Sequence record: MN340231.1
DNA length: 44,616 nucleotides
Source: Escherichia phage phiv205-1
Reading direction: 5' to 3' (one strand)
Numbering within the stretch: position 1 is the stretch's first letter; every line of letters begins with the position of its first letter. Position numbers: made by a program. Below are positions 3,001 to 9,000 of this stretch, piece by piece.

Positions 3001-6000
3001 TGCACTTATCAGTGACGACTTCAAAACCTGCACCTATTGTCGTTCTTCTACCGATAATAACTTTTGAACCTTTTGTTGCGACAATATCACCTTTAATCTT
3101 ACTGTTTTTATGTATTCTTACGTAATTATTATCACCCCTAAATATTACGGTAAGCCATCGACACTCAACATCATCTTCTATAATAAGTTTGTTATTGTTT
3201 CCATTGAACTGAACTTTATTCTCTTTGCTATTTACAAGATCTCCACATACAAAAATATTACCTGATCCATTATCATCAACGGAAAACGAGTCTTGAGTCT
3301 TGAGTCTTGAGTCTTGAGTCTTGAGTCTTGAGTCTTGAGTCTTGAGTCTTGAGTCTTGAGTCTTGAGTCTTGAGTCTTGAGTCTTGAGTCTTGAGTCTTG
3401 AGTCTTGAGTCTTGACATATTAGTATCCTACGTTATTTTACCACTAGTTACTTTTCTTGTCATTAAAAAGCATTTAAATTTTTATATTTAATTTCGTTGA
3501 CGTCAATGTTTTTTGCCAATGTACTTACTTCTTTATGTGAGCAGTTCATATTTTTGACGCCAACGAAACATTTAGTGCTTCCCTTCTATTAAGTCTAACC
3601 TAGCTTTTATTCTTTCTATTTCTCTGCGCTGCCATGCCGCCTCGATATAGAATAAGAGATCAGGTCTGACCCCCCATCTAGATCCTGCTGGCGTTATTTC
3701 AACGCGCTCAATGATGTCTTCTATTACCATCACTGGATTATCATCCTCATCAACAATGATGCTCCCGTCATTATCAGTCAGCGGCATTTCCCTTTGGCCA
3801 GTAATGACGTCATCATATACTGCGGGATAATCGTCATAGCAAAGAAAGGCATAGCGGCATGTTGTGCTTTCTTCTTCCATGAGTCCGTGAGAAATAAGAA
3901 CATCACGAAGTTGCTGCGCGATTACACCATGATGTATCCTCGCCCCTTCTTCCCCCTTTATAGCGACAGCGTTCAGCCATTTATAAGCGATATACCTGAC
4001 GTCACCCCAGGCATCCAGCAATGCTTCGTCAGGAGAGACCGGCTCTGTCTTTAATGTTCCGTCACTGGTAACCACAGGATTGGAGCCAAGATAAACTGTC
4101 GAGAACCTGTTTCCCGGACCACCAAGAGCATTTACATTATCAAGATAAGGTTTAACATCTCCGTTCTCAAAAAGATGTTCGAGTGCGTTATATACCGCGC
4201 GACGTGGAGTACTGCTTCTGGAACCATGCAACGTTATCATTGCACCATCTGCTGAAGACGTTGTTTCACCGCCGCTAACGATTAATCTCTGAGCGGTAAC
4301 ATCATCAGACGGTACTTTCTTCGCAATAATGGCGTAATTACCCTCAAGTTTGACTTCCGCGCGAACTTGTCCTGATGTACCTGCATGGACAGTCAGTGAC
4401 TGGACGGCAACATCATCTGTGAAATCAACAGGTACAGGAACCGTCCTCACGCCTGACGTCGACATAAAAGTAGGAAGCGTTCTGTTAGGAGTGGCTCCGT
4501 AGGCAAAATCCCTTGAAACAAATTCTTCCTGTTTAATTTTCACCCTGAAACAATACAAATCAGCCGGGTGACCATCGTGAACATAAGGATATTTTCTGTT
4601 GTTATCCCCTATGCTCCATGGGTTTAGAAAGTCTTCCCCACCGAAAATGTAGTACAGCCAGTTGTCTTTGATACAAACTGAACCAACACCAACCGCAGAG
4701 TTAACTATTCCGCCCTGATAAATCTGATCAGTAACATTAACCCACTCTACATTATCCAGACTCCACTCATTGACGTTAACTCTGGTCATAAATGTTCTTG
4801 GATAGTTTCCTGCATAACGGTTATCAGGTTCTCCTCCTTCCCACTCACCAAATGCGCGCTCACTGCCAAAAATAATCAGCTCATCGCCAACTTTGGCAAA
4901 AGGAAGGTTTGAGTGATGAACATTATTTGGGAAGCGAAGAGAATTCCATGATGTACCTAAATCAGAGCTTCTGTGCAATGAACTACCGGGTTGAGTACTT
5001 AATGTCCCCCTGGTCGTCAGATACAGAATGCCATCATAATATTTTACACATGGCTCAGATGCATTCGCCTCATATTCTGCAGGTATGCGTCTGCGAACAA
5101 AGCTACCAGGAGAACCGAAAGCATCAGAGAAATAGAGTATCCCAAGCTCGCGTGGACCAATATCACCATTATGGTAGCCAACAGCAAAACTGTTATCGCT
5201 AATCGTCGCAAAACTGTGAATCTCAGTAACAGGAGTGCTTCCGTCAACAAAAGAAGGAATAGTTCCAAGACTGGTTTTTCTCCATGGTGACGAGTGAAAT
5301 GATGTACCAAAACTCCAGTATCTACCCTCGTTATTCTGATCCACATCCTGGGTATTTTGCGTCGTAACTGTAAAAGTATTTTTATCAATAACAGTAGTCA
5401 CCGTCATATTCCCGGTAACACCTGTAACACCAGAGTTTGAGAAGTTGACAAAATCACCAGCAAATAATCCGTGATCAGTAATGCGAATATAAGCGACTTG
5501 CTGATTTGCTGCTTTCGTTATACCACCATAAACGCGAAGGCTGCGACTCATTGGGCGATCCCACAACTCTGCAACCTGCAGTTTATTTCCGCTCACGGTC
5601 CGCGTCTCAATTACAGCAAAAAGGCGATTTCTGACAACCCCCATACTCATGCAGTGATAGTTAACTGTGGGATAGTTTTCATGTAAATCTGTAAGCCATT
5701 CCGGCGTTGTCCAGGTCTTCCCGTCATCTCCTGAGCGAACCCATGCAACATGGAGGTTATTTACACCATGGCGGTCTCCAGCCATAAAAGGCGCATAGAT
5801 GACATTGTCATATACAAACGTTTTATCCTGCGTCCAGGCGTTGTACCACGGTGTATCTGTAATTTTAAATAACTCTCCCTGGATAAAATCTTCAGAAGCA
5901 TAAAAAAGAGGCTGACCCGGTATTCTCTCAAATAAAAAACGAGCATTTTTAAATCGACTGACATCTGGAAGAGTTGATACTTTAAAAGTAAGCCCTCGCC

Positions 6001-9000
6001 CATCTATCTTTTCACCACCTGTTGCAACAGAAAGTAATTCTGATAGAGCTGATGTATCATCATGAACACCATCACCAATAGCCCCCCAACCTCTTACATC
6101 ATAACTGTCTCTCCATCTTGCTATCTGAAGTTTTGGGTATTTATTCGCTCCATCTGGGTCTTCTAATTGCTGCCGTAGTTGATCAGGGTCATACTTCAGC
6201 ACATTGGGAAAATAGAACTGCTGTGCACCATACGCATCATAAACAGCCATAGAATGGCCTTGCACGGTAACGAATTTGGCAATCTGTCCGTTATATACCG
6301 GATATCCAGCGTAAGCGTGCAGCAAGAACCGTATTGACGGGGATGTGTTATTCAGTCGGCAGTGCTACGCGCCAGGGGAGCAGTTCGCCGACCCGGTTTA
6401 TCGGCCAGTCGGCTATGACGTCAAGGACATAGCGGAGGTAGCTTTCTGGCTCCACTCCGTTCAGTTTGCACGTCCCGATCAGGCTGTACAGCAGCGCTCC
6501 CCGCTCTCCTCCATGATCCGAACCGAAGAACAGGTAGTTTTTGCGGCCCAGACTGACCATCCGCAACGCATTTTCAGCGATGTTATTGTCCGCCTCAGCC
6601 CAGCCATCATCTGCATAGTACGTCAGCGCCGGCCACTGGTTCAGGGCGTATGCGAACGCTTTCGCCAGTTCTGAGTGTCGCGACAGGGTTTTCATCTTTT
6701 CACGCAGCCAGCTTTCCAGGGATTTCAGCAGCGGTTTCGTTTTCAACTGACGTTCGGCAAGGCGCTGCTCCGCCGTCATTCCCCTTATCTCTGCCTCGAT
6801 GGCGTACAGTTCGCCGATCCGTTTCAGCGCTTCCTCCGTCAGGGCTGACGGGGTGCGAACGTGCACATCGTGGATTTTACGGCGGGCGTGAGCCCAACAG
6901 GCGGCTTCCGTTATCCGGCCATCCCGGTACAGCTCGTTGAACCCGGCGTATGCATCCGCCTGCAGTACACCACTGAACCCCGCAAGATGGGTCTGCGGAT
7001 GGATGCCTTTTCTGTCCGGGCTGTAAGCGAACCACACCGCCGGCGCCAGCGTTGACCCGGCGTTACGGTCGTCACGAACGTAGGTCCATAACCGCCCGGT
7101 CTTCGTTTTCTTATTGCCTGGCAACAGCACCGGGACAGGCGTGTCATCAGCATGGAGCTTACCGTCAGTCAGCACATAGCCATGAAGCGCCTCTTCCAGC
7201 GGAGACAGCAGCCGGCAGCATGCATCCACCCAGCCCGACAGCAGTGAACGGCTCAGCTCCACACCTTGCCGGCCGTATATTTCTGACTGGCGATACAGCG
7301 GGGTGTGCTCTGCATACTTCGAGGTCAGCACGCGGGCCAGCAGCCCCGGTCCGGCGATACCCCGCTCGATGGGCCGCGAAGGTGCAGGTGCCTGCACGAT
7401 GGCATCGCACTGAGTACAGGCATGTTTTTCCCGTACCGTCCGGATAACCCGGAAGGCGCTACGCATCAACTCCAGCTGTTCGGCGGTATCCTCGCCCAGA
7501 TAGCTCAGTGAACCGCCGCAGTTCGGGCAGCACGGCGCCGCAGGCAACAGTCGCTTTTCGTCACGGGGTAGTGATTCAGGGAACGGCTTACGGGTGCGGG
7601 TCTGACGCAACGGACGCTGTACTGCCGGGTCATACACCCTACCAGTCAGCGTATCGCTCTCTTTCTGAAGCCGGTTCAGATCGGCTTCCATTTGTGCGAT
7701 ACGGCGGGAGACTTTTTCGGAACGACTGCCGAAGTTCATCCGGCGGAGTTTATCCAGCTGCGCCTGCAGATGGTCTATTTCGCGCTCCCGGTTGCTCAGC
7801 TTTTCCTGCAGGGCGTGGATCAGCGCTTCCTGTTCGGCCAGGCGCTGTTTCAGCAGGAAGATGTCGTCAGAAGAGATGTCGTTCATAAGCCCGTATTTTA
7901 CCGGGCTTATTCTGTGACAACCAGGATAAAGAGATTTACAGCATGGTCAGGGAGGTCAGCAGCCGCTTAGGCTGTCGCCAGTCGATACCTTCCAGCAGCA
8001 TCGCCAGCTGCGCCTGTGTAAGGAACACTTTGCCATCACGGGCTGACGGCCAGGCGAAGCGCCCACGCTCCAGCCGTTTGGTCAGGAGGCACAGTCCGTC
8101 ACCGGTGGACCACAGCAGTTTAACCTGACTGCCGCTGCGGCCCCGGAAAATGAAAACATGGCCGGACATGGGATCGTCTTTCAGCGCCGTCTGTACTTTC
8201 GCAGCCAGGCCGTTGAAGCCATTTCTCATATCAGTGATACCGGCAACCAGCCAAATTTTGGTCCCGGAAGGTAACGGGATCATCGCTTCAGTTCCTGTAT
8301 CAGCAGAGTCAGGAGCTTTTCGCTGACATTGCCATTGAAGCGGAGCGTCCCGTGCCGGAACGTTACCTCACAGCTGATACTGAGGGTTTCCGGGTCCTCT
8401 GCGAGCGATTCTGGCTGTTCGGCAGCTGCATCGAGAGTCACAGGAAGTAGCTGGGGGCTCTCTGAAGAAGGTAATAGCAGCTTTCCCTCGCGCCATTGTT
8501 GTCGCCATTTGAACAACAGATTGGCGTTAATGCCATTTTCAAGAGCAAGTTTTGAGATGGATATCCCGGGTTCACAGGAGGCAGCAACGAGCTGCTGTTT
8601 AAATTCGGGAGGATAATTAGGGCAGCCTTTTCGCCTGCCGGGAGTCACATTTTTCTGCATATCTGACACTTTGGTTCCCACTACTTATTTGGTGGACACC
8701 ACTTTGTCTAATTCGTCAGATTCTGACCAGACGGTTCAGGCTGTACGCTTACTATCCAGCAGCGTTAATGATTATTGGTTGCGAAACAGGAGCGTGAGAG
8801 CCGTCTTCGTTCTCCACATAAACCTGAATCTGGTTTTCAGGATTTACAGGGTCAGTGTCAATTTTACCGATATAAATTTTGCCATTGGCTACGGCTTTAA
8901 AAGAACGAGCCATAGTGAAGAGTTGTGAAGGCATGCTTACCACAACATTGGCTGTAATGTCTGTCATTTAATTTGCTCCAGATACAAGGAATCGCCGAAG

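Follow-up and report, generated by a model that had tools for sequence, protein, structure and literature searches.

How did the tailspike gene of a K1 prophage come to lie in two pieces, and does the break mark the domestication of the prophage by its bacterial host? The question is raised by a 44,616-nucleotide stretch of Escherichia phage phiv205-1 (sequence record MN340231.1; the whole stretch is referred to here as the window), in which a transposable element separates the two parts of an endosialidase tailspike gene while the neighbouring gene neuO is intact. We consider it very likely that an active ISEc8-like insertion sequence (IS) of the IS66 family inactivated the tailspike of a CUS-3-like prophage by transposing into its endosialidase tailspike gene, a siaK1 homologue, at codon 71/72.

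An earlier reading of the window without database searches (the sequence-only reading) had placed TATCCAGC at 6303..6310 and at 8753..8760, with 2442 bp between the two copies (6311..8752), and all of these coordinates hold. The two 8-bp copies form a target-site duplication (TSD), which together with the terminal inverted repeats (IRs) sets the bounds of the element; its genes lie on the minus strand, oriented as the tailspike gene and neuO. The tnpC-proximal IR (6311..6332) reads GTAAGCGTGCAGCAAGAACCGT, and the reverse complement of the tnpA-proximal IR (8731..8752) reads GTAAGCGTACAGCCTGAACCGT. The two termini match imperfectly, at 19 of their first 22 positions, and each begins GTAAGCGT. 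For the IS66 family, Han et al. in 2001 reportedly described imperfect terminal IRs of ~20-30 bp beginning GTAAGCG.

Three minus-strand open reading frames (ORFs) fill the element, and all three match IS66 models. The first, tnpA (8280..8660), encodes an accessory protein of 126 amino acids from its ATG, the ORF reaching to a GTG at 8681; TnpA was matched by Pfam HTH_Tnp_1 (1.8e-12) and, above the cut-off, by the NCBIfam model for IS66 TnpA, NF047595 (6e-28). The tnpA stop codon and the start codon of tnpB overlap in an ATGA at 8280..8283, as read from the sequence. The second accessory protein, TnpB (7936..8283, 115 amino acids), matched Pfam TnpB_IS66 (PF05717, 1.2e-38) and NF033819 (3e-35, above the cut-off). 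The third gene, tnpC (6348..7886), starts 49 bp downstream of tnpB and encodes a DDE transposase of 512 amino acids. Pfam DDE_Tnp_IS66 (PF03050, 2e-106) covers 283 of 284 profile positions in TnpC, zf-IS66, LZ_Tnp_IS66 and DDE_Tnp_IS66_C also match, and NF033517 (8e-140) scored 466 bits against a cut-off of 180. The assignment to the IS66 family made in the sequence-only reading is upheld by this IS66-type DDE TnpC, the upstream tnpA and tnpB with their ATGA coupling, the 8-bp TSD and the IRs. That reading had also counted three transposase ORFs; three IS66 ORFs are indeed present, but TnpC alone is the transposase, TnpA and TnpB being accessory.

The closest annotated relative is ISEc8, known from Escherichia coli O157:H7 and Stx phages; its copy in the Stx2 phage 1717 has the same length (2442 bp) and aligns with the element end to end without a gap. 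The two share the tnpA-tnpB-tnpC organisation, the 8-bp TSD and the GTAAGCGT... termini, the phage 1717 copy carrying its own 8-bp TSD, CGATAACC. Nucleotide identity is 94.8% (126 mismatches); TnpA and TnpB are 100% identical at the amino acid level, and TnpC is identical at 485 of 512 positions. Under the ISfinder convention, isoforms have at least 95% nucleotide identity to the reference. By alignment, the element in the window would be a close ISEc8 relative or a borderline isoform, not the reference sequence. RefSeq names the copy in Escherichia coli IMT5155 just 'IS66 family' and related copies 'ISEc22 family'. Copies 100% identical to the element are present in many E. coli genomes, and the IMT5155 chromosome contains nine matching places, including a 100% identical second copy at 78324..80765. 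We also considered an extended IS end or a target-site preference, given that BLAST matches to the IS ends in other genomes reached 7-22 nt into the flank. This was rejected: direct comparison with strain EC1 gave scattered chance matches alone (CGTTATA..CAGC) and no shared flank. The same flank comparison gave no evidence of co-mobilised tailspike DNA.

On the tailspike side, the 5' fragment of the gene (8752..8967, minus strand) consists of native codons 1-71 followed by a TAG at the junction, and matches positions 1-71 of the 113-position Pfam Head_binding profile (5e-39). The 3' fragment (3572..6310, minus strand) was matched in Pfam by End_beta_propel (1e-233), End_tail_spike, End_beta_barrel, End_N_terminal and Peptidase_S74. 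It begins with Head_binding (PF09008) positions 69-113 of 113, followed by the endosialidase N-terminal extension, the beta-propeller with its inserted beta-barrel and the tailspike stalk, and ends in the Peptidase_S74 intramolecular chaperone domain. The TAG after codon 71, recognised correctly in the sequence-only reading, takes its TA from the duplication and its G from the first position of the element. The same reading had set the head-binding domain apart from the rest of the tailspike. The gene is split as described, but the insertion point at codon 71/72 falls within the domain and not after it. The N-terminal product would have 71 residues, ~63% of the head-binding domain, and the other 910 native codons are left without the native start.

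Removal of 6311..8760 in silico, which had been put forward with the sequence-only reading as a test, restored a continuous 2946-nt ORF of 981 codons with a single terminal stop. The restored ORF is identical at 2946 of 2946 nucleotides to the intact tailspike gene of the avian-pathogenic E. coli (APEC) strain E19035 (O2:K1:H5), and differs from CUS-3 siaK1 by 28 nucleotides (9 amino acids; 99% identity); 3572..6310 taken alone is 100% identical to the E19035 gene and 99.5% identical to CUS-3 siaK1. Given the exactness of the TSD, the end-to-end match to ISEc8 and the perfect restoration of the ORF, the arrangement cannot be a coincidence. RefSeq likewise annotates IMT5155 with two tailspike pseudogene fragments around tnpC, tnpB and tnpA of an IS66-family element, the equivalent of 8752..8967 being a pseudogene without a C-terminus.

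By its gene content and sequence, the window is a CUS-3-like, P22-type (Lederbergvirus) K1 prophage integrated in argW. The argW gene, a tRNA-Arg(CCU) at 1009..1083, contains within its 3' end the 16-bp attL core (1054..1069, plus strand), which is duplicated as the attR core at 43583..43598 (plus strand); the integrase gene, intS in the annotation, adjoins attL. CUS-3 (CP000711), the prophage of E. coli K1 strain RS218, has the same argW site and 16-bp att core. It shares with the window int, neuO with its AAGACTC tract, an endosialidase tailspike with a P22-type head-binding domain, and a P22-like set of virion genes. Identity between the two is 99.5% over the stretch that runs from attL past int and neuO into the tailspike, as far as 6310, and alignment restarts at 8753, the second TSD copy, with an 8-bp overlap; such an overlap is the mark of a clean insertion into a gene that is otherwise colinear. 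The CUS-3 tailspike gene is uninterrupted, whereas that of the window is split. In the right arm the two agree at 99.8%. In its middle the prophage shows the mosaicism usual among lambdoid/P22 phages, and the mosaic parts (immI/ant, the ejection proteins, nin and the immunity region) have no match in CUS-3 or 85-97% identity. In RefSeq the integrase, TorI-like excisionase, repressor, replication, terminase, portal, scaffold, coat, gp4/gp10, ejection protein, holin and endolysin genes are all annotated as intact. The prophage measures 42,529 bp; subtracting the IS and one TSD copy leaves 40,079 bp. An oversized genome was considered as an extra defect and rejected: 42.5 kb with the IS is still below a P22-like headful of roughly 43.4 kb, and a loss of terminal redundancy is not obvious.

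We propose that the event took place in an APEC O2:K1 lineage of the IMT5155 type with the prophage at the argW site, and that the IS most likely came from a further copy on the same chromosome. A clean cut-and-duplicate insertion would have produced the 8-bp TSD and cut the protein off after 71 residues, inside the head-binding domain. In P22, the tailspike is anchored on the tail by its N-terminal head-binding domain, and particles that lack spikes cannot infect; P22 gene 9 mutants make DNA-filled particles that are unable to adsorb and are rescued by added tailspike protein. Such amber mutants offer an analogy, the tailspike being lost from a P22-type podovirus as predicted here. They differ from the present case in carrying a point mutation instead of an IS insertion. 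Because the tailspike gene is split and the other prophage genes are annotated as intact, the prophage is expected to be spikeless and non-infectious but inducible and lytic. With P22 gene 9 biology and the intact annotation as a guide, the induced prophage could still excise, replicate, package and lyse its host. The released particles, having no tailspikes, would neither bind and degrade the K1 polysialic acid nor infect, and inheritance of the prophage would now be vertical only. The absence of adsorption-competent virions foreseen in the sequence-only reading would follow from the established knowledge of P22 gene 9.

Several points weigh against this account. The non-infectivity of spikeless particles is inferred by carrying P22 biology over to CUS-3, and neither the direction nor the source of the transposition can be proved from sequence. 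Inside the IS end, a TTG at 6325 opens a 917-codon frame that runs into the tailspike, and as a predicted start it may allow some expression of a headless, soluble endosialidase; no Shine-Dalgarno sequence precedes this TTG.

The insertion is shared by few genomes. The window corresponds closely to the prophage of APEC IMT5155 (O2:K1:H5), whose RefSeq record differs by three single-base indels only. When a 300-bp query across the left junction was compared with 5426 complete E. coli genomes, the insertion junction was present in only three: IMT5155, DE17 (duck, China) and VTB96815v (chicken, South Africa). Of the complete genomes, ~185 have the endosialidase gene and 161 have neuO. A comparison of 26 kb showed the three carrier prophages to be otherwise identical to the window except for one single-base indel in all three and, in VTB96815v, one neuO repeat fewer and a second IS. 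This second IS is an IS629-like element of the IS3 family with the TSD GGTT, located at the equivalent of ~4905 in the window (17439..18744 in the VTB96815v locus). A further genome, NCTC11151, carries an IS3-family element in the endosialidase gene near the equivalent of 5575 (6005..7314 in its locus), at a site and in an orientation different from those of the VTB96815v element, and has an IS3-family copy in a nearby ClpP-like gene as well. A spread sample had put IS3-family disruption of the tailspike gene at ~30%. Frequent disruption was rejected on a site-specific query, by which the IS629-like site is free of any interruption in at least 182 of 185 genomes; judged from these loci, IS3-family tailspike insertions are rare and independent. 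As the IS is identical to other copies and the split gene has not diverged from the intact allele, a recent intragenomic transposition is indicated, for which selection would not be required. From the carriers, the IS66-family insertion looks recent and vertically inherited in one poultry lineage.

The neuO gene (2642..3418, minus strand), which encodes a polysialic acid O-acetyltransferase, is an in-frame ORF of 258 amino acids with a hexapeptide-repeat match, at a locus that matches CUS-3 neuO. Its AAGACTC heptanucleotide tract (3288..3413, minus strand) holds 18 copies by repeat count, the phase ON state, so that the gene is intact and in frame in the window as the sequence-only reading had reported. 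A promoter-like site lies directly upstream on the minus strand (3463..3435). The tract has 17 repeats (OFF) in VTB96815v, which has the same IS66 insertion, and 19 (OFF) in CUS-3/RS218 and 34 (OFF) in E19035, both beside an intact tailspike. Across near-identical prophages the repeat counts are 18, 18, 18, 17, 19 and 34; such counts are a plain illustration, at the level of sequence, of active slipped-strand phase variation. In RefSeq, an OFF allele appears as an 'acyltransferase' of only 336 nt. Both ON and OFF states were recorded in a 2026 study of 8,659 K1 genomes (PMC13001214). NeuO protects against K1 phage, and the adjacent DsdC regulates neuO (Connolly et al., PNAS 2022, PMC9659370). 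On this account, neuO should stay a functional, phase-variable capsule O-acetylation gene independent of the state of the tailspike.

Was the loss of the tailspike adaptive? The sequence-only reading saw a prophage fixed as a host-beneficial conversion cassette, and its mechanistic counterpart is a domestication in which tailspike loss was selected or locked in and immobilised the prophage as a neuO conversion cassette for the K1 host. The idea is plausible rather than demonstrated, and we regard it as unlikely. In its favour, three isolates, each from a different continent, still carry the same insertion, VTB96815v took a second IS in the same dead gene, and neuO is kept in all three carriers. 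Clonal persistence, however, is equally expected from hitch-hiking or drift, and neuO, which one of the three carriers has in the OFF state, is kept just as well, also phase-variable, beside intact tailspikes. An in-frame neuO, which the sequence-only reading took to fit fixation, shows a phase-variable gene at one moment. No substitution separates the split gene from the intact allele, the rest of the prophage shows no decay, and the insertion is present in just 3 of the ~185 endosialidase-carrying genomes. With lysis and replication genes intact, the costly part of the prophage is still armed. A grounded prophage would combine purifying selection on its cargo with decay or loss of lytic functions; here we found a single lesion beside lytic and packaging genes annotated as intact. 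CUS-3-like phages are reported to be prone to decay, with tail and coat pseudogenes, large deletions and a functional neuO kept (Connolly et al., PNAS 2022, PMC9659370). The prophages of that study, situated between argW and dsdC, resemble the window in the pseudogenisation of a virion gene and the retention of neuO. Their decay is described generally, with deletions down to 8 kb, whereas that of the window is minimal, one lesion. The present IS66 insertion is described neither there, where the IMT5155 lineage is also absent, nor in PMC13001214; the genome paper on IMT5155 and the BEN2908 comparison do not mention the prophage lesion either. A recent and possibly neutral insertion that would now be passed on vertically fits the data.

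Selection could instead have acted against the endosialidase itself: spontaneous induction would free an enzyme that decapsulates K1 kin, and knockout of the tailspike would be favoured and recurrent. At least three independent IS insertions at three sites (codon 71, ~4905 and ~5575) among ~185 genomes point in this direction, as do truncated tailspike copies that also exist; if true, these insertions would be a footprint of selection in K1 pathogens. The numbers are small, however, at least 182 of the 185 genomes being uninterrupted at the IS629-like site. In addition, the ClpP-like neighbour gene is hit too in NCTC11151, so that insertions are not specific to the tailspike, and coat and tail pseudogenes are reported generally (PMC9659370). 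We hold selection of this kind to be very improbable, and likewise the variant in which the IS end, through the TTG at 6325, provides the start for a headless endosialidase. Least credible of all, to the point of being negligible, is an assembly artefact in which a multi-copy IS was misplaced into the tailspike gene. An IS with nine places in IMT5155 is the usual cause of such errors, but a perfect 8-bp TSD flanks both junctions, excision gives a perfect ORF, and three complete genomes sequenced independently have the same junctions as the window.

Recent IS66-family transposition into the tailspike gene, the reading that we prefer, implies that the neuO-carrying prophage of IMT5155-type APEC O2:K1 is probably unable to spread horizontally; capsule O-acetylation would therefore be a vertically inherited, phase-variable trait in these bacteria. 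The insertion junction also offers a handy clonal marker for the poultry lineage. The lesion is already visible in public annotation, every component is a known element, and the route is a standard one for grounding a prophage. The case is a textbook IS grounding with no new mechanism; to what has been published on CUS-3 decay it contributes one example, well resolved and at a very early stage.

On the right of the prophage, dsdC adjoins attR at ~43.9..44.6 kb. DsdC has been reported to regulate neuO across the ~40-kb prophage (PMC9659370), a distance that the IS insertion lengthens by 2.45 kb.

The module at 9400..16100, a mosaic extending from immI/ant to the ejection proteins, contains an Arc/Mnt-like pair, a ClpP-like protease (10718..11254), a Panacea pair and a 621-amino acid ejection protein. 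Neither CUS-3 nor the E19035-type prophage has it; both carry a YafO-toxin module in its place, despite identical int-neuO-tailspike arms. An IS-free version of the exact mosaic of the window was looked for and the candidates were rejected: the empty-site strains E19035 and 729_021014_1_4 share the int-neuO-tailspike arm but differ in the immI/ejection-protein module. Within this module, at ~11916, the window has T4 where IMT5155, DE17 and VTB96815v have T5. The indel falls in a Panacea-domain (antitoxin-like) gene at 11898..12179, and the T4 frameshift leaves an ORF of 93 amino acids instead of 147; either a homopolymer sequencing error or a real mutation may account for the difference. The small gene at 11307..11726 could be a candidate toxin partner of the Panacea-domain gene.

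Relative to the IMT5155 RefSeq record, single-base indels are also found at 38429 and 39243, in a gene annotated in RefSeq as 'TolA-like, frameshifted, internal stop'. The ORF at 38558..39418 is open in the window and encodes 286 amino acids of a Glu/Ala/Lys-rich coiled coil, and the RefSeq 'pseudogene' may reflect an assembly error or the origin of the window from a different isolate. Finally, a tRNA-Thr(UGU) and a tRNA-Asn(GUU) lie at 29153..29308 on the minus strand, between a Q-type antiterminator and the holin gene and upstream of the lysis cassette, a position at which CUS-3 has only unannotated 'boundary sequences'.

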